From Oscillospiraceae bacterium (GTDB lineage Bacteria; Bacillota; Clostridia; UBA1212; UBA1255), in assembly GCA_015069185.1 (NCBI GenBank), contig SVJB01000006.1:4974-68973 (forward strand): a DNA stretch of 64,000 nt, written 5' to 3'. Position numbers and translations under genes: made by a program. A model generated the notes under the pieces. That model did not search any database. It was given only the letters and a program-made list of their open reading frames with translations, and was not told the DNA's origin. How positions within the stretch are numbered: position 1 is the first letter of the stretch; each line of letters opens with the position of its first letter. Positions 10,659-50,652 of this stretch are shown piece after piece.

Positions 10659-13142
10659 TTATTTTATCTTTCTCCTACTTTTCAAGATAACAAATACCGT
10701 AGCTGCTGCTATAACAACTACTCCGACTGCTATTATCACTATGACATACCAACTAATACCTGCCTTCTCACCAAAATCCGGTATTTCCTCTGACGTAAAC
10801 TGGAATACGAAGCGTCCTCCTGGTACTGCTGTGCCGTCTGTATATACGTCCATTATATCGCCTGTAGATAAGTTATTATCGCACCATTTGAAGTTAAAAG
10901 TAACTCTATCTGTCATACCAAGCATACTCCTAGGCACAGCAACCTGCATTATGTTACCTTGCACTGTGTATGACACCTTACCTACCTCTTCCCAGTTCCA
11001 GTCACCTGTACTTCTCTCTAATACCATTTCGCTTGCAGTAGGATTGTTACGGTTAAGTATATATTCAAATTCCTCCCAATCCTTTGAATCACTTGTAGCC
11101 ACCTGGGTATCTAGAAGCAGTCGCATCCAGTTAGTGTCTGTGTACGGAGACAGTGCATTTACAGTCTCTACGTAGAAATACACATTATCCTTATCGTATG
11201 ATACCTTTGTTGTTTTAATATCATTTCTGGTACCTTCGTTAGTGTATGTATAACCTACATATCCGGCTGTATTTCTTTCGTATGTGTTGTTTGTGTAATA
11301 ATTGTATGAAATAATATTGCTATCCTGCCATTGGTCGGCTCCTTGCGTAATATCAATAGTCTTTGCAGTTGTCTGACTATCAGGTTTGGATGCTCCCTTA
11401 AATCGTCTGATATTGCTCACAAGTTGGTAATAATAGTGATCCTTGAGTATACCCTTTGACGGCTCAATATCTCTTGAATTAGCATCGTCATATTGATCTG
11501 GAAAAGCATTGTGTACTCCACACCATTCTTCAAACCTTCCCATTACCCACTCATTCCATCCTGTTACAAATATTATCTCAGGATCTACACTTATTGCATA
11601 ATCCCATTGTTCCTGGAAGTTTAATCCATACAAAAGGGAGTTTTCGATACTTTTATCTACTTTGATTTTTTCACCACGATATGCATAGGAATATGAATAT
11701 CCACGTTGCATTGTAAAGCTCCTGCCCATATTGTGGTCCCCATTCATGGCGCTGAGTTCCATTTTCTCATAATCAGCATTCTGAGCTACACCTACTGTTG
11801 TCATCTCTACGCTGCCATCATCATTCTTGTATAGCGCTTGAGGATATACATGGAGCCAACCCCAACTGTCATCTGTCATGTCTTCTCTAAAATATGATGG
11901 CATACCTGCCCGGAAAGTAAAGTAATTCAACAATTGATATTGATACGGATCTGACTCTTCCAGCCCACTGCTATGTGCCATTATAAGAGGCTTACCTTCC
12001 CAATAGAACCATAAATCCTGATAGAGATTCTTGCTGTACAGATTTTCATATAATCCTGCTAATGAGGTTAATGTGTTGCCGGAATATGCAAACTGTAGCA
12101 TGAAGGCAACCTGTGGCGTCTTAACGCCCTGCTCTCGCGCCTCAGACCATGTTTCCAGCAGTGTCATATATCCATCTTCCCATAAGAAACTACCATTAGT
12201 GCAATCGAACAAAACAAAATCCACACCTGCATTTGCAAGCATCTCTGCATGTTTACGAAGCACATATTTATCTGTTCTGGCATAGAAGCCAAACAGAGGT
12301 TCATTCCAGAAATTCATGCCTACATAATTATTCCATAAGGTATGATGGAAATCCTTCTTAAGTTCAGGATGCTGCTCCATTAATTGGGTAATATTTATTG
12401 GTCTGTCATATCTGTGACGAGTATCATGCCATGTCCAGTAGAACATACCAACAATTTTATCCTTCTGTGGTCCTGTTTGACTATATCCGTCTACGGTCCT
12501 ACCAAGGTCATCTATAGCTGCAAATTTCGTAGGATCCACGCCCATAATGGCAATATTACTATCTGCAGCGATTTGGGACTCCGGCGGAGCGTAATCCACA
12601 GGAAAATCCGTCATTTCGGAGGTTAATTCAAAGCCTCCATTAGTATCACTAAGTACGATTTGTCCTTTTATAGAACCCAGATAAAATTTATCATTATAGC
12701 AATTCTTAGCGCCTACTACATTGCCCTTGTACTGATACACTGTAAAGCTACCACTCTTTACATATAAATCATAAAAATACTCACCTGCATCCAAGGGCTT
12801 ATCAAACTCTAATGAAATAAGTTGGTCTGCCTCCCAAAGGTCTATTTCTTTACTTGCAATTGGAGTACCACGTCTGGAGGTGATACTATTCTTATCCCAT
12901 TTATACAAAGTAGCAACAATAACACTCTTGCCTCTATTGCTTTTCGCTGCATTTATGCCCACGCTTGTAAATGAGCCAGATACTTTGAACTGGAGCTGTG
13001 CCCTGCCACCTTCAGCAATATTAACTGTCTCAACTTCACTTTCTCTATATGTATTCAGTGTTTTAGATTCTGCATTTACGTTTACAGAAAATAATGTTAA
13101 CACACAAATAGTAGCTAAAATAAAACAAAGGCTCCTTTTCAA
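10659..13142 (-). CDS. Secreted, C-terminally membrane-anchored putative glycoside hydrolase (GH71/99-like TIM barrel), paralogue 1, with an extra N-terminal module
   Basis: Signal peptide; GMFYWTWH, WNEPLFGFY, RKHAEMLANAGVD, WEGKPL, VTGWNEW and SRDIEP; C-terminal TM plus RRKIK. Confidence 0.6.
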   Translation of the reverse strand: MKRSLCFILATICVLTLFSVNVNAESKTLNTYRESEVETVNIAEGGRAQLQFKVSGSFTSVGINAAKSNRGKSVIVATLYKWDKNSITSRRGTPIASKEIDLWEADQLISLEFDKPLDAGEYFYDLYVKSGSFTVYQYKGNVVGAKNCYNDKFYLGSIKGQIVLSDTNGGFELTSEMTDFPVDYAPPESQIAADSNIAIMGVDPTKFAAIDDLGRTVDGYSQTGPQKDKIVGMFYWTWHDTRHRYDRPINITQLMEQHPELKKDFHHTLWNNYVGMNFWNEPLFGFYARTDKYVLRKHAEMLANAGVDFVLFDCTNGSFLWEDGYMTLLETWSEAREQGVKTPQVAFMLQFAYSGNTLTSLAGLYENLYSKNLYQDLWFYWEGKPLIMAHSSGLEESDPYQYQLLNYFTFRAGMPSYFREDMTDDSWGWLHVYPQALYKNDDGSVEMTTVGVAQNADYEKMELSAMNGDHNMGRSFTMQRGYSYSYAYRGEKIKVDKSIENSLLYGLNFQEQWDYAISVDPEIIFVTGWNEWVMGRFEEWCGVHNAFPDQYDDANSRDIEPSKGILKDHYYYQLVSNIRRFKGASKPDSQTTAKTIDITQGADQWQDSNIISYNYYTNNTYERNTAGYVGYTYTNEGTRNDIKTTKVSYDKDNVYFYVETVNALSPYTDTNWMRLLLDTQVATSDSKDWEEFEYILNRNNPTASEMVLERSTGDWNWEEVGKVSYTVQGNIMQVAVPRSMLGMTDRVTFNFKWCDNNLSTGDIMDVYTDGTAVPGGRFVFQFTSEEIPDFGEKAGISWYVIVIIAVGVVVIAAATVFVILKSRRKIK

Positions 13143-14087: not shown

Positions 14088-16130
14088 TTATGTTTGAGGT
14101 GCTGTTACCTTTTTCTTGCGTACTATTATAAAAATTATAACGGCTACAACACAGATAACCAATAACACACCGCCTGCGTACAAATACCAAGGCAGAGAAT
14201 TTGTACTATCCGAGTTATCAGAATACTCAACTGTCGTAAATGAAAACATAAAACGGCCGCCGGGAGCTACATCTCCATATTGATAGAAATCCAAAATATC
14301 TCCGCTGTCCTCTGTACTACCGTCTGCAATTGTATTATCTGCCCACTTAAAGTTAAAATTAAGCGCAGCATCGTCTATATCAAGTGCAATGGCACTTCTT
14401 GGCACAGCAAGCTGCAATCTGTTACCGCTGACACTGAACTGTGCCTTGCCGCATTCTGACCATTGCCAGCCACCGCTGCTCTTCTCAATTATAGCCTTAT
14501 TATCATCATGAGACACGCGGTTGATTATATATTCAAAGCCTTCCCAATTATCTGTCACGCCTGTATAGTCAACATCAATCAATAGCCTCATCCATGCCGG
14601 ATCATCAGGTGATGTAATATCATCTACAGTCTCAACCATAAAATAGATATACTCATCATCATATGCAACCTTAGATGTTGTGATATCGTTACGCATGGTA
14701 TTATTCACATAAACGAGATCACCCCAGCCGTTGCTATTACGGTCACGTGTGCTACCTGTATAATGATTGTATTCAAGTAATACATCAGCCCACATATCCT
14801 GATTGCTGAAAATATCTATAGTTTTGTTAACATTTTTTTCTTGTGTACCGCTTTGAGGTTTGTCAACACCCTTAAATTTACGTATATTATCTACCAACTG
14901 ATAATAATAGTGGTCCTTCAAATCCCCTTTGGAGGGTTCAATGTCTCGGCTGTATTCATCAGTATATTGATCTACAATTGTCACAGAAGGCGTAGGCTTA
15001 CCAACCCAATTATATTGCATTCTACCTGCCACCCATTCATTCCAACCGGTAACAAATATAAAGTCGGGATCCACCTCAAGCGCATAATCCCATTGCTGTT
15101 GAAAATTAAGTCCGTACAGCTTAGAGTCCTCTATACTGCTGTCAACAGTAATTATTTCATTTTTATACTTGTATTGATACGAATACAAGCCTTCCGTATA
15201 TGATCTGCCATGTACGCCGCCTCTGGGATCATTCATACTGGTAAGACCAAATTCATTGGCATTTTGCGCAGTACCAACAGTCATTTGTTCTACAGAACCG
15301 TCTTCTCTCACACCGTATTTTCCCTGAGGATATACAGAGAGCCAACCCCATTGTCCTTCTTTTATGCTGTTTTGCTCTGTGAAATACGATGCTTGAGGTC
15401 TGCGGAATGTAAAAAATTCACTTATCTCGTATTCTATTTTCTTAGAAGTATCCAGTGATTCCGGATACGCCATGATCAAGGGCTTCCCCTCCCACATGAA
15501 CCATAAGTCTCTATATCTATCCTTGTAATATATGTCGCGGTATAAATTTTTGATCATTGCTCTGGTATTATCACACGCAGCAAAGTTAAGCATAAAAGCA
15601 ATTTGAGGTGTGTCTACACCCTCTTTTCTAGCTTCATCAAAGACCTTAAGGAGAGTCTCATAGCCGTCTTCCCACGTAAACACACCGTTAGTGCAGTCAA
15701 AAACAATCACATCAACACCTGCATCAGCCAAGAGTTCTGCATGTTTCCTTACAACATATGCAGCGGTAGTGGTATAATATCCAAATAGCGGTTCGTTCCA
15801 GAAATACGGAGTAGCATCTGCAGTATTCTCCCATGCCGGATGATTCCAATCATATGCCATATCCGGATATTGTTCCAGGAGCTGTGTCATATTACGCGGC
15901 TTATTAAAAGCACTCTTATAATGCCATGGCCAATAAAAAATACCCACGAATTTATTTTCTCTTGTAGCACCTACTTCAGAATAAGTACTGACAGTCCGTC
16001 CAAGACCGTCAACAGCTGCCCACGAGCCCGGATTAATAGAAACACTTGCAGACGAATCTGCAAGTGCCTCCATTGGAATAAAACTAAATAGAATTGTTGT
16101 AATTAATAAACAGCAAAACAATCTTTTCAT
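14088..16130 (-). CDS. Secreted membrane-anchored GH71/99-like protein, paralogue 2
   Basis: Same motifs (GIFYWPWH, WNEPLFGYY, RKHAELLADAGVD, VTGWNEW, SRDIEPSKG); C-terminal TM plus RKKK. Confidence 0.6.
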   Translation of the reverse strand: MKRLFCCLLITTILFSFIPMEALADSSASVSINPGSWAAVDGLGRTVSTYSEVGATRENKFVGIFYWPWHYKSAFNKPRNMTQLLEQYPDMAYDWNHPAWENTADATPYFWNEPLFGYYTTTAAYVVRKHAELLADAGVDVIVFDCTNGVFTWEDGYETLLKVFDEARKEGVDTPQIAFMLNFAACDNTRAMIKNLYRDIYYKDRYRDLWFMWEGKPLIMAYPESLDTSKKIEYEISEFFTFRRPQASYFTEQNSIKEGQWGWLSVYPQGKYGVREDGSVEQMTVGTAQNANEFGLTSMNDPRGGVHGRSYTEGLYSYQYKYKNEIITVDSSIEDSKLYGLNFQQQWDYALEVDPDFIFVTGWNEWVAGRMQYNWVGKPTPSVTIVDQYTDEYSRDIEPSKGDLKDHYYYQLVDNIRKFKGVDKPQSGTQEKNVNKTIDIFSNQDMWADVLLEYNHYTGSTRDRNSNGWGDLVYVNNTMRNDITTSKVAYDDEYIYFMVETVDDITSPDDPAWMRLLIDVDYTGVTDNWEGFEYIINRVSHDDNKAIIEKSSGGWQWSECGKAQFSVSGNRLQLAVPRSAIALDIDDAALNFNFKWADNTIADGSTEDSGDILDFYQYGDVAPGGRFMFSFTTVEYSDNSDSTNSLPWYLYAGGVLLVICVVAVIIFIIVRKKKVTAPQT

Positions 16131-16131
16131 A

Positions 16132-17793
16132 TTAGTTTGCCTTTCTCTTAATTATTAATGCGCAACCCATAAGCAACATAACCTGCGCAATCGCACTTGA
16201 TGAACCACAGCCGTTCTTTTCATTCTTTGACGGAGCCGTTGTAGGAGCAGTTGTTGCTGCATCTGTATTCTGAGGTTCGCTGGTAGGAGCCTTGGTAGAC
16301 GGAGCCGCAGTAACATCCTCTACAACACCATCCGGATCTCCTCCCACAATTGTAACACAATCAACAAAGAGACCATAATCTGTTTCAAAACCGTTTTCAA
16401 AAACAATTATTGAATCATCCTCGGACATTTCTGACTTCCAAAGCAGAGGGAATCCTGTACTCAACTGATTACCGTCAACATCTACACCTGTTGTAGCTTC
16501 TGTCACAACAACAAGATAATGGCCGCAACCTAAGTCCTCAGGGAAATCAATTATGCAGTTTGCGTTATCTATATGATCCTCAACCGTCACATAGTAGACA
16601 GGATCCTGGAAGATACTCTCATCATAATCACCATACCATTTGTACACAAAGACTGTAAAAGATGTCTCATACGCACCATTTGTAGCCATGGATTTCAAAA
16701 TAATTGAATCAAGAGAATTACCTGACTCAACAGTAAATTTGAAACCATACGCTACCTCTGCTGTGTATAACGGAAGAACACCTGTTCTGTCGAATGAAGT
16801 ATTATACATGCTAATTACTTTTTTCTGAGTAGCCGGAGCTGTCGGTGCTGCTGTTGCAGTAGAGCTCGGGGTTTTGTTTGGATCTATCGTAGGCGTAGGT
16901 GTAGGTGTCGCATTTGAAGTAGGATCCTTGAACATAATCTGGTCAATATTGAATGCTGCATTAGATGAACCCAGAGCGATATTAGCATCCGCAGTAATCC
17001 ATGCTTCTTCCGTTCTGTCCATTTCTGTTCCCTTTGCATCATAGATAACTGCCTTAGTATAGTGACCGTCTACAAGATTACTGTATTCTACATATATAGA
17101 CAACTCATCATTTACATATAAGGAAAGCCTGCCGTTAGAGTCTGTCACTCTAATCTTGCCCCATGCCGCATTTGAGAAAGCACCGTATATACCGTTAACC
17201 TCATAATATTCCTGATGGTATATACTTGAATATCCCTTATCATCTCTTGTAATTATATATAATGTAACAAAATCTTCTCCATAATTTGAAAATGAAATAC
17301 CAATACCACTGTCACCTACAATAGGACCCATGCTACTATCGTGATCAGGAGCTATTTCGTAAACATTGTGAACCGGTGTACCGTCTGCTTCTCTGTCAGC
17401 TCTGATAACCATACCTGCAAATCTCTGAGTGCCCAAATCGCAGTTTGCCAGCATTGAGAATTCCCAATCGCCCTGCCACTGATCTAAGCATACAAGACTA
17501 CTCATGCCTGTCATTCTCAGGAATCCTCCATTGGAATAAGCATTGGCATATAATGTATAAGGAGTGCCTCTATTTACATATATAGGTTCCCAGTGTTCTC
17601 TGATAATATTTCCGTCACTGCTATCGCCTGTTATAAATTGGGATGATCCTGTATTATGATTAGCTGTGTAGTAAGCGTTATCCCAATCGCATCCCCAATT
17701 ATGTCTCACACTGTCTAGTGTAGCAGCCGAGATTGGGAGAATCGATGAAATTATAAAAACCGCAACGAGAATAAATATAATTCTTTTCTTCAT
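16132..17793 (-). CDS. Secreted protein: ConA/LamG-like domain, linker, 'YKW' module, linker, Cys-containing C-terminal anchor
   Basis: Signal peptide; GPIVGDSGIGISFS shared with 22546-23976; PTPTP linkers; tail NGCGSSSAIAQVMLLMGCALIIKRKAN. Confidence 0.6.
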   Translation of the reverse strand: MKKRIIFILVAVFIISSILPISAATLDSVRHNWGCDWDNAYYTANHNTGSSQFITGDSSDGNIIREHWEPIYVNRGTPYTLYANAYSNGGFLRMTGMSSLVCLDQWQGDWEFSMLANCDLGTQRFAGMVIRADREADGTPVHNVYEIAPDHDSSMGPIVGDSGIGISFSNYGEDFVTLYIITRDDKGYSSIYHQEYYEVNGIYGAFSNAAWGKIRVTDSNGRLSLYVNDELSIYVEYSNLVDGHYTKAVIYDAKGTEMDRTEEAWITADANIALGSSNAAFNIDQIMFKDPTSNATPTPTPTIDPNKTPSSTATAAPTAPATQKKVISMYNTSFDRTGVLPLYTAEVAYGFKFTVESGNSLDSIILKSMATNGAYETSFTVFVYKWYGDYDESIFQDPVYYVTVEDHIDNANCIIDFPEDLGCGHYLVVVTEATTGVDVDGNQLSTGFPLLWKSEMSEDDSIIVFENGFETDYGLFVDCVTIVGGDPDGVVEDVTAAPSTKAPTSEPQNTDAATTAPTTAPSKNEKNGCGSSSAIAQVMLLMGCALIIKRKAN

Positions 17794-17837
17794 ATTAACC
17801 TCCAAATTACTTGACTTGTTTTGTATTTTATGTTTAG

Positions 17838-22545: not shown

Positions 22546-23976
22546 TTAGTTTTCTTTTTTCTTCTTAAGTGCTACAGCTGATAATGAAGCAATCGCCAGC
22601 GAGATAAGACCAAAGTCACCTACTGATGGAATCTCAGGCTCAGCAGCCTTAGCGTTGACTGTAAGATTAATTGTATAGAAATCGATAGCTTCACCTGTGT
22701 TAGAGTAAGCAGTAAGCTTAATTACATGGTCACCTGCAGCTAATTTAGATGTATCAATAACTGCATGTTCTGCGTCAGTACCAAAACCTACTTTGTCAGC
22801 AGCTGCAAGATCCGGTCCGTTATATCCAACAGCAGCAAGCACATCTGCACGGCTTCTTGTAGGAGTTAAGCTAATACCTTCGGCGCCATCAATTGAATAT
22901 TTAATATCAAATAAACCTTTTGATGTAATTGCCCAACCAAGTACAGATACATTATCTCCCTCTGTAATAGCAAGAGCAGAATTGTCACCGGCTTCCGGCT
23001 GTACACCATTGATTTTATCCATAGACTTCAAAACAGTAAGTGGTGCTTCCGGCTCCGGAGCAGCTTCCTTTGTGAATGTAAGGTCATCAATATTTAAGTC
23101 TACATAGTACTGAACGTCAGAATCAAATGTACTTATTGTCAAGTTACCTTTTTCAGAAATAACTGCGTGATCTGTTCTTGCCTTCTCAACGCCGTTAGCA
23201 TCTTTGATAACAGCAGTCTTATAAATACCGTTAACAAGATTACTATACTCTACAGAAGCAAGTAATTTGTCGTTATACATAAATTTGCATACACCATCTT
23301 CATCAATAACCTCTAAAGATGCCCATGTTTGTATGTATAGTTCACCAAAAGCAGGATATCCTTCTATAACATAATCTGTAAACCAATAACCACCCTGAAC
23401 GGCAGCGTTAGGATCTTCAAAATTAACAACATAAATACGAATATGTTCATTGGCTGCATTTGATGAGAAGCTGATAAAAATACCACTATCGCCTACAATA
23501 GGTCCAAGATCTTTTGTGAATCCACCTAGAGGTTCATTAACAGCATGTGTTAATTTGCCATTTGCATCTCTTAATGTTCTCACACCAACGCCGGCAAAGT
23601 TAACCTGTGCATATGCAGACTCATAGAAGTTCATTTTGAACTTATAATTCTCATCCCACTGGCCTTTTGATGCCAGACTTGTGTTGTTGAGTAATCTTAA
23701 AACATAGTCTCCACCTACATAGTTAATGTAGAACGGATAATATGTATCATCGTGTCCCTTGTGTGTTACATCAAAGAATTCTGCAATTTTATTACCGCTA
23801 GCCGCGTCCTGCATCATCCAGTCAAAACCGGGCAGACCGCATACATTCTTATAATAATCATCCTCAAAATCAATAGACCAACTATTCGGTACTGTATATG
23901 TATCATTAGCAGATACTGTCCATACCATTGTTAATGACATCGCCATAACAACTACAAAAATTAAAAGTTTTTTCAT
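22546..23976 (-). CDS. Secreted ConA/LamG-like plus Ig-like surface protein with sortase-like anchor
   Basis: Signal peptide; GPIVGDSGIFISFS; GWAI...RSRADV...GF...LAAGDH Ig-like module; tail IPSVGDFG-TM-KKKKEN. Confidence 0.6.
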   Translation of the reverse strand: MKKLLIFVVVMAMSLTMVWTVSANDTYTVPNSWSIDFEDDYYKNVCGLPGFDWMMQDAASGNKIAEFFDVTHKGHDDTYYPFYINYVGGDYVLRLLNNTSLASKGQWDENYKFKMNFYESAYAQVNFAGVGVRTLRDANGKLTHAVNEPLGGFTKDLGPIVGDSGIFISFSSNAANEHIRIYVVNFEDPNAAVQGGYWFTDYVIEGYPAFGELYIQTWASLEVIDEDGVCKFMYNDKLLASVEYSNLVNGIYKTAVIKDANGVEKARTDHAVISEKGNLTISTFDSDVQYYVDLNIDDLTFTKEAAPEPEAPLTVLKSMDKINGVQPEAGDNSALAITEGDNVSVLGWAITSKGLFDIKYSIDGAEGISLTPTRSRADVLAAVGYNGPDLAAADKVGFGTDAEHAVIDTSKLAAGDHVIKLTAYSNTGEAIDFYTINLTVNAKAAEPEIPSVGDFGLISLAIASLSAVALKKKKEN

Positions 23977-29218: not shown

Positions 29219-30418
29219 TTACGCCTTCTGGCTTGTATAGTTATCAAAATAACCTTGAATAAATATAATAGGAGTGCCCTTGTCTCCACTACCTGATGTT
29301 AAGTCACACAGTGAACCAATAAGATCTGTAAGACGTCTTGGTGTGGTACCCTGTGATGCCATGTTACCTACAAGATTACTCTGTTTATTCTTGATGTATT
29401 CTGAGATAGCATCTTTGAGTTCCTGTCCGCTAAGTGATGCAAAATCATTATCAGCCAGATACTTAAGCTTAATCTCATTTGGTGTACCTTCTAAGCCACT
29501 TGTATATCCCGGTGAAACAACCGGATCAGCCAGCTCCCATATCTTACCAACAGGATCCTTAAAAGCACCGTCACCGTATACCATAACCTCAACAAGCTTA
29601 CCTGTTTTATCGAGAATTACTTGCTGTACAGCCTCAACAAACTCCTGACACTTTTCTGGGAATAACTTAACTGTATTTTCTGTTGCTTTATTAGAACCAA
29701 GCAAACCATATGTTCTGTTACATCCACTACCATTTACAGGATTGTTCATAATATCATCAAGACCACATACTCTATTTGCTCCATTAGCCAGGAGAATTCT
29801 CTTAGTTCTCGCTCTTGTATGAATATCACAATTTATAACATTCTTTGTATATTTAAGAATTGCTCTGCAATCATTAGCAAATATAATCTCAACCTCTGCG
29901 CCACACTCCTTAATAAGGTCGCCGTAATACTCAACATAATCAACGCCTGTAAATGGATGCTTATTATATCCAAACAATTTACGATATTCATCAAGACTAA
30001 GTACGTCTGTATATGGATTAACATCTGTAGCATCCAATTGATCTAATGTAATAAGGTGATTGCCAACTTCGTCTGAAGGATAGCTAAGCATAAGATAAAT
30101 TTTCTTAGCACCTTTTGCAATACCTCTTAAACAGATAGCAAATCTGTTTCTGCTAAGTATCGGAAAAATAACACCAATGTCTTCTCCGCCAAGCTTTGCC
30201 TTAACATCTGTAGCTATATCATCAACTGATGCGTAGTTTCCCTGCGCTCTTGCCACAACAGCCTCGGTAACACCGATAATATCTCTATTCCCGATAGTAA
30301 AATTCTCGCACTCTGCTGCCTTCATAACAGAATCAGCAACTATGCTGACAAGGTCATCTCCGCTTCTGATAATCGGAGCACGCACACCACGCGCAACTGT
30401 TCCACACATTCTTTCCAT
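29219..30418 (-). CDS. F420-0:gamma-glutamyl ligase (CofE)-like protein
   Basis: [36 protein letters not shown] and [16 protein letters not shown]. Confidence 0.75.
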
Positions 30419-30552: not shown

Positions 30553-31638
30553 TTATTTCTTCTTTCTTATGATAAGAGTAGCACCGAGAATTAACATTAT
30601 TTGAGCAATGCCGGATGCTGATCTGCAGCCTCCATCCTCTGTTTGTCTGTTCTCCGGTGCCTGTGTAGGCTCTCTGGTAGGCAGTTTATCTATAGGTATA
30701 GCCGTAGGCCTTAGAGTCGGTGTAGCTATAGGCTTATTAAAGCTATATGTCAGCACAAGATTATCAAACTTTATAGTTTTATCTGTACCTCTATTCCCAA
30801 TAGCAATACCCGAGTATTCAGCACATATACGTGCATTATCCAATGTCATGACTGCATTCCCATCAGGATCCTTTACAGTAGCCTGCTTATAGTATAACAT
30901 AGGACAATCCTTATCATCACCATCCGGATATGCAGCAGCCTCTCCGCCATACTCTATAGTACACAAAGCAACACCGTTTATCATAACAGCAATATTGCCT
31001 ACACCATCGTCTGTAAATTTATAAGTATTCATTTGTCTTGCTTTAAAGCCTTGAGGATATTTAAATTCTACTGTTTCAGAGCAAATATTAAGGCCGTCAT
31101 CAACGTATGTCTTTATACAAATACATATTTTTGTAGATGTTTCATATATCTTTATGCCTGATCCGCCTGTACCTGACGTTCCGTGTTCGCCACCGTTTTC
31201 AGCATACCAGTCCCATTCAAAGAATCCAAATTTCTGATCAATATCTGCATTTTTAGGATTCTTGATAGTATATGTATTAGGGTCAATTGCCCTTAGAAAT
31301 ATTGCACTATTATCTGTTTTACTTGACACATAGTCAACCTGGAATGAATATTCACCGGTAAGATATTCATATGCTACATTTTCACTTATATATATCTGTG
31401 AATAGCCCTTTATGTATCCTTCGCCGTTATTATTAACAGTTGCGGTACCGCCGGCAAAATTCTCCACTGTAAAAAAGTCCACAATATCCGTATTGGCAAT
31501 TTCGTCATCGCCTGGTTCAAAAGAAATCTCAAAGCTCTTTGTAATAGTTTCATACTGTATGTCTTGGGCTGATATTGTCTGTGAAAATAATGCCAGCAAC
31601 GAAACAATAACAAATATTAATATAAAAGTCTTTTTCAT
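30553..31638 (-). CDS. Secreted ConA/DUF1080-like protein with Cys-containing C-terminal anchor
   Basis: Signal peptide; YSFQVDY...DNSAIFLRA, GGSGIKIY and YKQATVKDPDG; PT linker; tail GGCRSASGIAQIMLILGATLIIRKKK. Confidence 0.6.
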   Translation of the reverse strand: MKKTFILIFVIVSLLALFSQTISAQDIQYETITKSFEISFEPGDDEIANTDIVDFFTVENFAGGTATVNNNGEGYIKGYSQIYISENVAYEYLTGEYSFQVDYVSSKTDNSAIFLRAIDPNTYTIKNPKNADIDQKFGFFEWDWYAENGGEHGTSGTGGSGIKIYETSTKICICIKTYVDDGLNICSETVEFKYPQGFKARQMNTYKFTDDGVGNIAVMINGVALCTIEYGGEAAAYPDGDDKDCPMLYYKQATVKDPDGNAVMTLDNARICAEYSGIAIGNRGTDKTIKFDNLVLTYSFNKPIATPTLRPTAIPIDKLPTREPTQAPENRQTEDGGCRSASGIAQIMLILGATLIIRKKK

Positions 31639-33599
31639 ACAGCTACCTCCGTTTTATTTGCTTTCCGTTTTCTCATTATAATCACTATCACAGTCGCGCC
31701 AACTGCCACTGCTGCTCCGGCAGAGATTAATATAATATGCATTGTATTTAATATATTCGGATCATCTGAACTAATCTGAACAAAATGTTCATTAGATATT
31801 TTTCCGTTTTCTTTTACATATCTGAAGTTAAATCGCTCATTTGGCGCGCTATCTCCCAGGTCCATAAATTCCATAACCTGACCTGTTGTGGTAGAGTTAT
31901 CTGCCCATTTAAAGTCGAAATTATCACGATCATCAAGTCTGATCAAGCTGTTATCTACGCATATCACCATTGTATCGCCTAACAAAACATAGTCAGCCTG
32001 TCCAACAGTCTCAAACTCCCAACTATTATCAACAAATCGCTCTACAGACACGCTGCCATCCTGGCGGCTACGATTTAGCACGAAATCATATCCTTCCCAA
32101 CCTGAATAATAAAACTGGTCTGCATCTATATACAGGTTCATCCAGTTAGTCCCTTCTGCTTCTATAATATTTTCTGTACAGCGCACATAAAAATACGTGT
32201 ATTGATCTGTTTTAGAGACCTTTGCCTCCTGAATATCGTTGCGACCTGTTGTGTTCACCACCTTATCACCTGTTACCAGCACATAATCTCTGTGTGTAAT
32301 GTCATTGACCATATCCGAGAAAACAGGCCCTACATTGTTAAATTCTGTCAAATCGCCGTTTATATTTACTGTAACAGAGCCGGTTCCTTGAGGAATTTCT
32401 CTCACTCCCTTGAATTTACGTATATATGATGCCATCTGATAATAATAGTTATCTCCAAACAACGATTTAATAGGCTCAATGTCACGGCTAAATTCAGCGC
32501 TAAAAGCATCAACGTAATTACTTTGAAACTGTAAGTCACCTTGTGCTATAGTGTATGAATTGGATATACGCTGACCTATTCCGGCATCCGGCCATCTACC
32601 AAATGTAAATTCATTCCAACCAGTAATCATCACAATATCAGGATCAATTTTAAGAGCATGTTCCCATTGTTCTGCAAAAGTAAGACCAAGGCCTGAAGTT
32701 TCCAGCCCATAACCAAAGTCTCTCCAACCGCTGGAGGGCTGAGCACCATCATGAAAGCTACGACCTTTAGATGAATTAGAGTGAAAACCTGCAGATACAA
32801 CCACCTGTTCTATATTACCTTCTTCATCTCTGCCCGGGACCTGGGGATATTCAGCAATCCATGGCCACTTTCCCTTACCGTCTCCTGTCCAGTCATTAAA
32901 AGCCCAAGAGTCACGCAATGTAAAGAAATCACGGTATTCAGCCGCTAGCTGGCTGTGATTACCAAGCAACAGTGGCTTTCCGTCCCAACAAAACCACAAA
33001 TCTTTATACTCATCATGTGAATAAATATTCTTCCATATAGACTTCATATGTGATGGCATATTACCCTCGTCCATACCACAGAAGAAAGCTATTTGCGGTG
33101 TAGTGCCGCCTTCTTGTCGGATCTGGGACCATACCTTGAACATTGTCAGCCATGCGTGTTCAAACAAACCTCCAAGATTTGTTGTATCAAGAAATACAAA
33201 ATCTACTCCTGCCTCAGACAGAAGCTGGGCGTGCTTACGATATATCCATTCATCAGTATTATTATAATATCCGTAATACGGTTCTGCCCACACATGGAAT
33301 CCGTTTCGCGGTACTATTTCCCATACAGCTTCAATGCCACCTTCTAAAAATGTTTTAGTTGTATCTATAACATGGGCACTTTTCGAATCCATAAACAAGA
33401 AATAGAAAATACCTACATATTTGCTTTCTCTGGGGTCACCAACATCCTCATTTGTAGGCAATTCTCTGCCCAGTGCATCTGTAGCCACCCATGTATCATA
33501 CATACAATCTCTTTCCTGTGCCATTACTACGGAAGAAACGCTTAGTATAAAAATAACTATGTATATTACTGTAAACAATCTTGTTACTATTTTTTTCAT
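31635..33599 (-). CDS. Secreted membrane-anchored GH71/99-like protein, paralogue 3
   Basis: WVATDALGR, VGIFYFL, WAEPYYGYY, RKHAQLLSEAGVD, ITGWNEF and SRDIEP; C-terminal TM plus RKRK. Confidence 0.6.
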   Translation of the reverse strand: MKKIVTRLFTVIYIVIFILSVSSVVMAQERDCMYDTWVATDALGRELPTNEDVGDPRESKYVGIFYFLFMDSKSAHVIDTTKTFLEGGIEAVWEIVPRNGFHVWAEPYYGYYNNTDEWIYRKHAQLLSEAGVDFVFLDTTNLGGLFEHAWLTMFKVWSQIRQEGGTTPQIAFFCGMDEGNMPSHMKSIWKNIYSHDEYKDLWFCWDGKPLLLGNHSQLAAEYRDFFTLRDSWAFNDWTGDGKGKWPWIAEYPQVPGRDEEGNIEQVVVSAGFHSNSSKGRSFHDGAQPSSGWRDFGYGLETSGLGLTFAEQWEHALKIDPDIVMITGWNEFTFGRWPDAGIGQRISNSYTIAQGDLQFQSNYVDAFSAEFSRDIEPIKSLFGDNYYYQMASYIRKFKGVREIPQGTGSVTVNINGDLTEFNNVGPVFSDMVNDITHRDYVLVTGDKVVNTTGRNDIQEAKVSKTDQYTYFYVRCTENIIEAEGTNWMNLYIDADQFYYSGWEGYDFVLNRSRQDGSVSVERFVDNSWEFETVGQADYVLLGDTMVICVDNSLIRLDDRDNFDFKWADNSTTTGQVMEFMDLGDSAPNERFNFRYVKENGKISNEHFVQISSDDPNILNTMHIILISAGAAVAVGATVIVIIMRKRKANKTEVAV

Positions 33600-33614
33600 T
33601 ATTTTCACCCTCCT

Positions 33615-49190: not shown

Positions 49191-50513
49191 TTAATTTTCC
49201 TTTTTCTTCTTAACAACAACTGATGAAATAGCTACGAAAGCAAGAGCGATAACACCAAAGTCGCCTGTTTCAGGACCTGCAGGTGTATCAGGATTTGATG
49301 GAACCTCTACTAATGCATCACTCAGTGTTCCCCAGTAATTTGTACCTTCACCAACGAAATCAATAACAAGCTTAGGAGTATGAGCTGTATAAATCTCACC
49401 ATCTTTGTAGCAATGAACATAAGGTGATGTACCATCAATTGACCATGTGCCTACTGCCTCGTTGGGGTCAGCAGATGTGTTCTCAAGAACAAGTACATAC
49501 TCACCTGCAGCTGCAGGAGTCTCAAGGGTAAGACCGATTGTTGCATTGTCAGGATAGTCAACATGTTCGTATTGAGCAATAGCATTACCTGCAATAGAAG
49601 CTTTGTATGAACCTGCCCACTTGTATAAAGTCCATGTAAGATTGCCCTTGCCTACAGGATCCTCGGGTGAATTCCAGCTTGGGCAAGGAATGCTAAGTTT
49701 ATTAAATGCTTCGCCTGTAGCAAACTGCATTGCAAATGTTCCACCAATCAGCATCGCAGCATGTGAATCTCCTGTAAAGGCACTAACAGAAGTAATCTTC
49801 TCTGCGGGAGAAGTTTTTTCAGGATATGTGATAGTAGCTTTTGTCACTTTAAGAAATGAATGAATCGTAGAGAAACCGATTGAACCAACTACCATATCCT
49901 TACAATTCTCAGCTTCGTAAACCACACTACCGTCAAGAGTAATTGTCAATTTGTTTTCTGTATCACTTGTATAATCATACGTATATACTAAATCGAAAAC
50001 ATGTCCATTTGCCTTTTGTTCGCTTGTCAAAGTATCTGAATCTAATTCTGTGGCAACATTATCCTTAACTGCGATAACCCTTACAACACTATCAGCAGAC
50101 TCAGGCCAACGCTTCATTTTAAGGAGCAATGAATCATACCATACCTGAGCATCAACTGCGCCCTCACCTGGATACTCAAATCCATCTGTCAGATTTGTAT
50201 CTGGCTTACCATTAAGCGCAAGATACACTTCCAGAGAATCCCAACCGTTTGATTGCACATCAGCATTTGTAACATCAGCAGAAAAAGACATCTCAACTTT
50301 AAATGACTTTGTACCATCAAAAATTTGCTCAGAATAAGCAGGCTTACATGCATTTGAGGCATTATTAACGCCAAAGAATTCTTCAGTTTCCTGATACCAC
50401 CATCCATGATATATCCACTTAATATCCTCTACTGTATCAGCAGCAGATACCGGAACAGCGAACATAGCAAATACAAAAGCCATTACTAAACATATTGTAA
50501 TAATTCGTTTCAT
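49191..50513 (-). CDS. Secreted surface protein: ConA-like domain, 'YKW' module, sortase-like anchor
   Basis: Signal peptide; FAMQF...TLYKW...PDNA...AGEYVL; tail GPETGDFG-TM-KKKKEN. Confidence 0.6.
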   Translation of the reverse strand: MKRIITICLVMAFVFAMFAVPVSAADTVEDIKWIYHGWWYQETEEFFGVNNASNACKPAYSEQIFDGTKSFKVEMSFSADVTNADVQSNGWDSLEVYLALNGKPDTNLTDGFEYPGEGAVDAQVWYDSLLLKMKRWPESADSVVRVIAVKDNVATELDSDTLTSEQKANGHVFDLVYTYDYTSDTENKLTITLDGSVVYEAENCKDMVVGSIGFSTIHSFLKVTKATITYPEKTSPAEKITSVSAFTGDSHAAMLIGGTFAMQFATGEAFNKLSIPCPSWNSPEDPVGKGNLTWTLYKWAGSYKASIAGNAIAQYEHVDYPDNATIGLTLETPAAAGEYVLVLENTSADPNEAVGTWSIDGTSPYVHCYKDGEIYTAHTPKLVIDFVGEGTNYWGTLSDALVEVPSNPDTPAGPETGDFGVIALAFVAISSVVVKKKKEN

Positions 50514-50652
50514 ACTTGTTTCCTCCATTTTCAAATTTGATATTTTTATTTTATATATTTATTTTCAAATAGTCCATTGACGATCATAACCATTATAATT
50601 GATATTTTTTCACATTCTTTACTTTTTGTTAAAACATCAAAGCGAAACAAAA

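Follow-up and report, generated by a model that had tools for sequence, protein, structure and literature searches.

A cysteine-containing C-terminal sorting signal in a monoderm clostridial order, with a candidate protease and a candidate lipid transferase

The tail-bearing proteins of the window

The window considered here is a stretch of 64,000 nucleotides from contig SVJB01000006.1 of an Oscillospiraceae bacterium (assembly GCA_015069185.1, here G000; 2.1 Mb in 54 contigs, 38.5% G+C, 85% complete), and the subject is a short Gly-Cys-containing C-terminal tail, the GC tail, carried by two of the secreted proteins encoded in it. An earlier note on this DNA had reported two secreted proteins sharing such a tail, and both open reading frames (ORFs) are as described, with coordinates that fit. 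Protein 1 lies at 16132..17805 on the minus strand (557 aa from a TTG start, or 553 aa from the MKKRI start) and ends in ...NGCGSSSAIAQVMLLMGCALIIKRKAN; protein 2 lies at 30553..31638, also on the minus strand (361 aa), and ends in ...GGCRSASGIAQIMLILGATLIIRKKK. Each tail comprises the stop codon and 26 codons, at 16132..16212 (minus) for copy 1 and at 30553..30633 (minus) for copy 2. Copy 1 begins G-C-G-S-S-S, continues with a hydrophobic helix containing an invariant Gln, and closes with K-R-K-A-N; copy 2 begins G-C-R-S-A-S and passes through its helix to R-K-K-K. The common layout is thus G-C, then a few small residues, a hydrophobic segment and a basic end of three to four residues.

In both proteins a Pro/Thr-rich linker precedes the tail, and by inspection the N-termini resemble signal peptides (...ISA/AT in protein 1 and ...ISA/QD in protein 2). 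The passengers that the tails terminate have no domain match in a Pfam search. In a forced alignment they are 18% identical, as against 48% for the tails of the same pair.

Copy number, conservation and modularity of the tail

The occurrence of the motif goes far beyond chance. A six-frame scan of G000 found 24 tail-bearing ORFs, and a profile built from 22 tails (A1) returned 24 again, with tail 1 scoring 69.5 bits (at G000:C43:21114-21206, given as genome, contig and position) and tail 2 scoring 66.9 bits. The same profile found 9 and 17 copies in the two congeneric genomes, while the family's 22 remaining genomes had none; the motif thus extends well beyond the two proteins in which it was noticed. 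The consensus first proposed for it is near the computed family consensus (GGCGSSSAIAQVMLILGAALIIKKKK); across 22 aligned tails, Cys and Gln are invariant and no other residues are. All 24 tail-bearing ORFs have by inspection a signal-peptide-like N-terminus, which in one of them contains a lipobox-like F-G-C.

The conservation is at the level of the peptide. Over the 231 pairs of 22 tails, the mean proportion of synonymous differences (pS) is 0.77, which is saturated, that of nonsynonymous differences (pN) is 0.16, and amino-acid identity is 77%. Codons are mixed even at conserved residues, with Gly encoded about equally by GGT, GGA and GGC, Ser by both TCN and AGY, and the tail Gln by CAG 13 times and CAA 11 times. 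Saturated pS together with low pN marks the tails as old copies under selection on the peptide, rather than products of recent duplication or gene conversion.

The tail is also modular. The 24 passengers, many of them secreted proteins of carbohydrate-binding or enzyme-like character, form 14 BLAST clusters unrelated to each other, among which proteins 1 and 2 are singletons, and their Pfam domains include NPCBM, F5/8-type C, CBM6, BNR_4, tyrosine phosphatase, Big_3 and fn3. Paralogues of these passengers in G000 end otherwise, in an xTGD sortase signal, in an unconserved transmembrane (TM) and basic anchor, or with no anchor at all. A 680-aa surface protein adjoining protein 1 (14088..16130, minus strand) has a plain TM and basic anchor, whereas a paralogue on contig C52, 62% identical to it, ends in the GC tail; this pair illustrates a choice of anchor. 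The two belong to a paralogous family of some 25 members, 600-830 aa long, which end in the GC tail, in a plain anchor or in none; the family is represented in the window at 14088-16130, 10659-13142 and 31635-33608 (all minus). A scan of these three window members gave no Pfam domain, and a domain reading '...DGD.AP.GR(L/F).(Y/F)' is conserved at the end of several members of the family, which is possibly an undescribed glycan-acting one.

These observations make it very probable that the GC tail is a dedicated sorting or anchoring signal. They also bear on the simplest alternative, in which the tail is a permanent, uncleaved anchor whose helix and Cys pack against a shared partner or against each other, with neither lipidation nor proteolysis. 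The tail has everything that a stop-transfer sequence needs, and plain TM anchors are used by many of the paralogues; the plain anchors of G000, however, lack the sequence conservation seen in the GC tail. Further evidence on this alternative comes from the distribution of the tail and from the genes associated with it (below).

Relation to known sorting signals and sortases

The GC tail combines an invariant Cys within a signature, a TM helix, and a basic cluster at the extreme C-terminus. Like the class of signals treated by Haft (2023), it occurs in many copies per genome, on unrelated passengers, and always at the C-terminus. No C-terminal sorting model of NCBIfam or Pfam reached its cut-off, in agreement with the earlier statement that no named model covers this variant, and, taken as domain models, none of NCBIfam's sorting-domain models matched the tails at E<0.01. 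The strongest matches were to the C-terminal ends of two full-length MYXO-CTERM families, by 7 and 5 of the 22 tails (E ~3e-3 to 6e-3). The MYXO-CTERM model itself (TIGR03901) matched neither the 2 window proteins nor any of the 22 tails at E<=10. Single tails matched Synerg-CTERM (TIGR04564; 1/22, E 0.016), LPXTG (TIGR01167; 1/22, E 0.13) and, weakly, a GlyGly-CTERM protein family (E 0.073). The GC tail is a real signal that has no name as yet, and a Cys-type C-terminal sorting signal in a monoderm.

The monoderm status of the host, and the independence of the tail from sortases, had both been assumed in the earlier note, and the gene content of G000 bears them out. Omp85 and secretin were looked for in G000 and neither was found, nor was an exosortase or archaeosortase. 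G000 does encode three sortases, two of them within a pilus cluster having LPETG-type substrates, and xTGD sortase-type signals terminate about 20 of its proteins. Two of these lie in the window. One is a surface protein at 22546..23976 (minus strand), which ends in the sortase-type signal ...SVGDFGLISLAIASLSAVALKKKKEN and is a paralogue of the protein 1 passenger (31% identity over 301 aa). The other is a surface protein at 49191..50534 (minus strand) with an xETGD signal, from which it follows that a separate sortase pathway operates within the window. The lack of Omp85, secretin and exosortase among the genes found, together with the sortases' own substrates, is consistent with a monoderm that maintains a separate sortase pathway.

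It could still be proposed that the GC tail is an unusual sortase signal through which the passenger is joined to peptidoglycan, given that three sortase genes are at hand and that one tail gene adjoins the pilus-sortase cluster. The sortases, however, have about 20 xTGD or LPETG-type substrates of their own, and the GC tails lack an LPXTG-like pentapeptide before the helix, with the single weak match to the LPXTG model noted above; this proposal is hardly credible.

Two side observations concern the sortase systems. About 10 of the roughly 20 xTGD proteins share a near-fixed helix (G-D-F-G-L/V-I-A-L-A-F-A-A-V/I-S-S-...-K-K-K-K-E), which is unusual for a sortase signal. The pilus-type cluster, outside the window at G000:C31:25462-31801, comprises an LPETG pilin, a class-C-like sortase, a second pilin-like protein and a second sortase; immediately downstream of it is encoded a BNR-type protein of 753 aa that bears a GC tail.

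Distribution of the signal

The exact IAQ-ML form of the tail is restricted to one genus. Among 1.84 billion representative proteins, A1 gave 38 matches at E<=1e-3, of which 36 lie within 4 residues of the C-terminus, and a homologue search with the tail region returned 11 unnamed proteins. A scan of genome contigs with A1 gave 2 loci, both in one 'Clostridia bacterium' metagenome-assembled genome (MAG). In tandem tail genes of such a MAG (L041 and L042, on JAZQDE01 contigs), the helix Gln is replaced by His or Asn, so that outside G000 a polar residue, though not always Gln, occupies this place in the helix.

Weak matches to A1 in two sister families have in common the pattern of G-C, small residues, helix and basic end alone. 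A second profile (A3) was made from 8 such tails of the two sister families. Of the 46 genomes in the order, 14 had 5-27 matches each, 1 had a single match and 31 had none. By genus, the counts were 22, 9 and 19 in g1, 14-27 in all 8 genomes of g13, 5 and 6 in g15, and 14 in g8; the single match was in a g3 genome. In a sample of the class (401 genomes from 216 genera), A3 had multiple matches only in G000, G002 and G032, one weak match in each of 2 genomes, and none in 396. It follows that the profile does not catch ordinary anchors and that, within this sample, the signal is restricted to the order. A Cys-type signal is thus now placed in a monoderm clostridial order, at 5-27 copies per genome. 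Across the three families the Cys is invariant and the helix sequence is not, a pattern that counts against a permanent anchor working through a conserved helix and Cys.

CPBP2, a candidate protease

The earlier note could identify no processing enzyme in the window, and the present analysis likewise found no candidate among the window proteins. The neighbourhoods of the 24 tail genes in G000 do not share a recurring membrane enzyme; they contain instead AraC regulators, large surface proteins and transporters. A search of G000 with PF02517 found one CPBP only, CPBP1. When five other tail-bearing genomes were searched with Pfam, the tail-rich genomes G001 and G002 proved to encode a second CPBP, about 270 aa long and distinct from CPBP1; it is here called CPBP2. 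At E<=4e-43, CPBP2 is present in G001, G002, G027 and all 8 genomes of g13. Eleven of the 14 tail-rich genomes thus have it, as against none of the order's 32 others, a contrast that represents about 3-4 independent lineages because the genomes compared are related. Two of the 32 have weak matches (1.8e-10 and 3.9e-7). In the class sample, scores of 410-450 bits were obtained only in G002 and G032.

CPBP2 has the sequence features of a glutamic intramembrane protease of the CPBP / Rce1-like family. It matches PF02517 at 53-58 bits (cut-off 22.4) and keeps the EExxxR, FxxxH and HxxxN/D motifs, with E127, E128, R132, H165 and H209 invariant in 9 sequences. Against all Mrt models, which describe the CPBP enzymes of known Cys-type signals, it falls below the cut-offs; the best score is 26 bits with MrtJ (cut-off 75), and there is no match to Mrt_core (NF040914) at E<=1e-3 and none to MrtS. 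A predicted complex of CPBP2 (A5) with the tail (A1) scored 0.11 against a mark of 0.32 and is evidence neither way. A supposed 402-aa CPBP near the lone tail gene of G013 was a regular-expression false positive without CPBP similarity.

The tail might alternatively be cut by a housekeeping intramembrane protease of G000, either its single rhomboid, following the logic of GlyGly-CTERM and rhombosortase (the motif being G-G-C-G-S-S), or the syntenic CPBP1. Both enzymes are present in G000, CPBP1 beside a GtrA-like gene and rpsB, and either would account for tails in a genome where CPBP2 is not found. The rhomboid scores 50.1 bits on the rhombosortase model (TIGR03902), and one tail resembles the GlyGly-CTERM family at the weak level given above. 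That rhomboid score nevertheless lies below the cut-off of 84 bits, and CPBP1 reaches 30.7 bits against 100 on Mrt_core and 18.7 bits against 130 on MrtS (NF040589). All 41 relatives have the rhomboid and 36 of them have CPBP1, genera without tails included, so neither tracks the signal. Being present in nearly all relatives, both were rejected as specific enzymes, and cleavage by a housekeeping protease is accordingly improbable.

A cassette of tail gene, Lgt paralogue and CPBP2

In eight genomes (seven of g13, and G027 of g8) a tail gene, an Lgt-family gene and CPBP2 follow one another in this order on one strand; in G045 the contig ends at CPBP2. The tail proteins in the g8 and g13 cassettes have unrelated passengers, and the one in g13 is homologous to a tail-bearing protein of G000. 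By inspection, the cassette substrates have type-I-like signal peptides. The Lgt-family protein is 260-310 aa long, its reading frame overlaps that of CPBP2, and it matches PF01790 at 102 bits (cut-off 24.9). It is a divergent paralogue: it scores 71-78 bits on the equivalog model TIGR00544, below the cut-off of 118.9, and a canonical Lgt scoring 230-270 bits is encoded elsewhere in each genome checked. Where the canonical enzyme has G-R-W-G-N-F-x-N-Q-E-A-Y-G, the cassette Lgt has G-R-I-G-C-F-x-A-G-C-C-Y-G, and both of the Arg-containing motifs are kept. We take the Arg residues in these to be equivalent to Arg143 and Arg239, catalytic residues of the E. coli enzyme; in this region a phmmer alignment to 5azb is too weak for confirmation.

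The same arrangement recurs in metagenomes. Contigs scanned with a CPBP2 profile yielded 80 loci that were kept, many of them redundant copies from the same organisms, so that the counts here are of loci and not of independent events; 28 with less than 700 nt upstream were set aside. An Lgt-like ORF lies directly upstream on the same strand in 42 of the remaining 52 and is lacking in 10. Ten of the 42 lack a further 1000 nt upstream. In the 32 that remain, a gene ending in Cys, helix and basic tail stands upstream of Lgt at 18 loci by rule, or 19 with L121 added by eye, and at least 12 sequence groups can be told apart among these tails. At the 13-14 loci left over, other genes lie upstream, eight of them FtsK-like, including several near-identical copies.

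When longer relatives of the cassette Lgt were sought, P0045 came up, a protein of 520 aa with two member sequences that matches both PF01790 and PF02517. The first half shares 42% identity with the cassette Lgt and the second half 36% with CPBP2 over 193 aa (E 8e-28), which makes P0045 a natural fusion of Lgt and CPBP. It is known from the protein sequence alone and may be a gene-calling artefact.

The co-occurrence of the tails with a specific protease, and their adjacency to genes for that protease and an Lgt paralogue, tell further against the permanent anchor. That reading draws some strength from G000 itself, in which CPBP2 is not found, and from lipidation and cleavage being postulated steps. 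With the contrast to plain anchors and the invariance of the Cys also considered, we regard a permanent anchor as unlikely, while still the most serious of the alternatives.

The link of the tails to an Lgt paralogue also invites a different use of lipidation, in which the paralogue lipidates the Cys and a signal-peptidase-II-like cut before the Cys releases the passenger, making the tail a device for timed release. The C-G-S-S running on from the Cys does resemble the start of mature lipoproteins of G000. The protease linked to the tails is, however, a CPBP and not signal peptidase II, hydrophobic lipobox residues are lacking before the Cys, and the topology of the substrate is inverted, all of which renders timed release very improbable.

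Beside these genes, some further ones were seen. In g13, CPBP2 is followed downstream (G032 L070:3918-5874; also L071-L073 and L076) by a gene for a 305-aa protein and then by one for a YaeI/LpxG-like metallophosphoesterase. The 305-aa protein is conserved, with a signal peptide, a Pro/Thr linker, a TM helix and a conserved cytoplasmic end, and has no family match. In the window's genus the gene after CPBP2 encodes a phosphoesterase of the EEP family, for which a weak PGAP2IP-like match was obtained. A phosphoesterase thus stands beside CPBP2 in both g13 and the window's genus, and may belong to the pathway.

Proposed mechanism and evidence for and against it

The pathway that we favor would begin with Sec export and removal of the N-terminal signal peptide, the tail helix then holding the protein in the membrane with its basic end inside. 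The invariant Cys, at the outer face of the membrane, would be S-lipidated by the Lgt-family (diacylglyceryl-transferase-like) paralogue, and CPBP2 would cut just after the Cys and remove the helix, leaving the passenger on the outer face of the cytoplasmic membrane through a C-terminal lipid. Lipidation, cleavage, the order of the two, the final location of the protein, and the action of the same enzymes in G000 are all predictions from sequence. We consider it probable, by a modest measure, that such an Lgt-like and CPBP mechanism acts in the order, and hold this with somewhat less assurance for G000 itself.

An 891-aa protein of G000 outside the window (G000:C8:1630-4305) combines an N-terminal lipobox-like ...F-A-F-G-C with a C-terminal GC tail and, having both signals, could carry a lipid anchor at both ends.

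Several findings weigh against this pathway, most of them concerning the protease. A CPBP enzyme had been named in the earlier note as one possible cognate protease, next to a rhomboid or an exosortase. Comparison with the relatives lends this idea support, in that one subfamily co-occurs there with the tails and adjoins both tail genes and an Lgt paralogue; in the G000 assembly, CPBP2 was not found (best tblastn E 0.5; no match in a profile search) even though G000 has the most tails of the exact form. The flanks of the CPBP2 locus of G002, which is of the same genus, sit inside two different G000 contigs, without CPBP2; since they are internal to contigs, loss or relocation of CPBP2 is as likely as an assembly gap. 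The separation of the flanks over two contigs, beside toxin-antitoxin-like pairs, indicates that the ancestral CPBP2 site was rearranged. The absence of CPBP2 from G000 is for its part not proven, because the assembly has real gaps; the canonical Lgt and both its neighbours, which are expected genes, are missing from it.

Two further tail-bearing genomes, G041 (76% complete) and G042 (62% complete), also have no CPBP2 match. Conversely, CPBP2-like genes scoring 174-181 bits occur in two genomes from a different family, f72, with neither tails nor an Lgt neighbour. To these must be added the small number of independent lineages behind the co-occurrence. In the window's genus, moreover, CPBP2 adjoins neither an Lgt gene nor a tail gene. 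The extra Lgt paralogue of that genus, Lgt-B, has the G-C-C-Y-G motif as the cassette Lgt does, but it occurs also in tail-less genomes, and a tree, with long branches, puts it with the canonical Lgt and not with the cassette Lgts. Finally, a CPBP protein of S. aureus has reportedly been linked to N-terminal lipoprotein acylation (PMC7387801), so a pair of Lgt and CPBP could serve ordinary lipoproteins.

Two observations stand beside these points. The toxin-antitoxin-like pairs, at G000:C47:27549-28236 and C34:3608-4190, lie exactly where G000 differs from G002 around CPBP2, which points to mobile or addiction modules as possible sites of rearrangement. Outside the window, at G000:C52:20498-21115, lies a third Lgt-like ORF, strongly diverged from the others (275 aa; PF01790, 47.9 bits); it has the G-C-C-Y-G motif and a very long branch in the tree.

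Elsewhere in the window, the gene at 29219-30418 (minus strand), between a bipA-like gene and the gene for tail protein 2, encodes a protein of 399 aa that matches PF01996 (F420-0:gamma-glutamyl ligase) at 194 bits.

Comparison with known systems

Cys-containing C-terminal sorting signals have been described for diderm bacteria and archaea (10.1101/2023.06.07.544157; PMC11980579; here and below, as far as the text of these sources is accessible). MYXO-, JDVT-, Synerg- and CGP-CTERM are each assigned a CPBP enzyme (10.1101/2023.06.07.544157). Experiments demonstrated that MrtX cleaves MYXO-CTERM, and an 'Lgt-like acyl-transferase' yet to be identified was put forward as a hypothesis (PMC11980579). 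In the two-step model for that system, modification of the Cys by a separate lipid transferase is followed by CPBP cleavage beyond it; the transferase was not identified, and the housekeeping Lgt was named as the "leading candidate" (10.1101/2023.06.07.544157; PMC11980579). Preprint 10.1101/2023.06.07.544157 does not mention Firmicutes, Bacillota, Clostridia or monoderms, and in the literature, taken largely without subscription papers, no Lgt paralogue or CPBP was found tied to C-terminal sorting in Firmicutes.

Taken together, the invariant Cys, the varied passengers, the CPBP, the Lgt paralogue and the fusion form a pattern that, by analogy, fits the two-step model proposed for MYXO-CTERM. 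The gene order and the natural fusion single out one specific candidate for the transferase that is still missing. It is a tentative suggestion, one that we find attractive without quite being persuaded of it, that the divergent Lgt paralogue is the long-sought transferase and forms with the substrate and a myxosortase-like CPBP, to which it is at times fused, a self-contained 'reverse lipoprotein' module, producing C-terminal diacylglyceryl anchors in gut clostridia with neither an outer membrane nor type II secretion. The set of three genes is small enough to be rebuilt in a laboratory host. If the suggestion is true, it would account for the way in which many carbohydrate-binding proteins are presented on the surface of these uncultured gut bacteria; genome annotation would gain a sorting-domain model and two enzyme subfamilies, all of them new. 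The findings suggest a new way for single-membrane bacteria to fasten surface proteins.

The nearest known system is MYXO-CTERM with MrtX in Myxococcota, which likewise has a Gly-Cys tripartite tail, dozens of copies on unrelated surface proteins, and a dedicated CPBP. It differs in that the present host is a monoderm in which Omp85 and secretin were not found, the GC tails do not match TIGR03901, CPBP2 scores below the Mrt cut-offs, and an Lgt paralogue stands beside the protease, an arrangement not reported for MYXO-CTERM in the accessible text of 10.1101/2023.06.07.544157 and PMC11980579. Synerg-CTERM with MrtS, JDVT-CTERM with MrtJ and CGP-CTERM with MrtA (Haft 2023, in its accessible part) also pair a Cys-containing tripartite signal with a cognate CPBP, and JDVT-CTERM provides a parallel for a gene pair of substrate and enzyme (PMC11980579). 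In Synerg-CTERM, the Cys ends a Ser/Gly cluster and abuts the helix, whereas here the Cys comes first and Gly-Ser-Ser-Ser follows (10.1101/2023.06.07.544157).

Systems with other enzymes offer partial parallels. LPXTG with sortase, GlyGly-CTERM with rhombosortase and PGF-CTERM with archaeosortase have the same three-part architecture and modular use as the GC tail, and differ from it in signature and in enzyme family. PGF-CTERM is also a precedent for a C-terminal lipid anchor in a single-membrane cell (10.1101/2023.06.07.544157). The N-terminal lipoprotein pathway of Lgt and Lsp resembles what is predicted here in its Lgt-family enzyme, in the Cys placed by a helix at the outer face, and in the intramembrane protease that removes the helix. 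The differences are that the helix here is inverted and stands at the C-terminus, that a lipobox is lacking, that the protease belongs to the CPBP family, and that the cassette Lgt falls below the equivalog cut-off. The proposed pathway may thus be pictured as a mirror image of the N-terminal lipoprotein pathway and as a putative monoderm counterpart of MYXO-CTERM and myxosortase.

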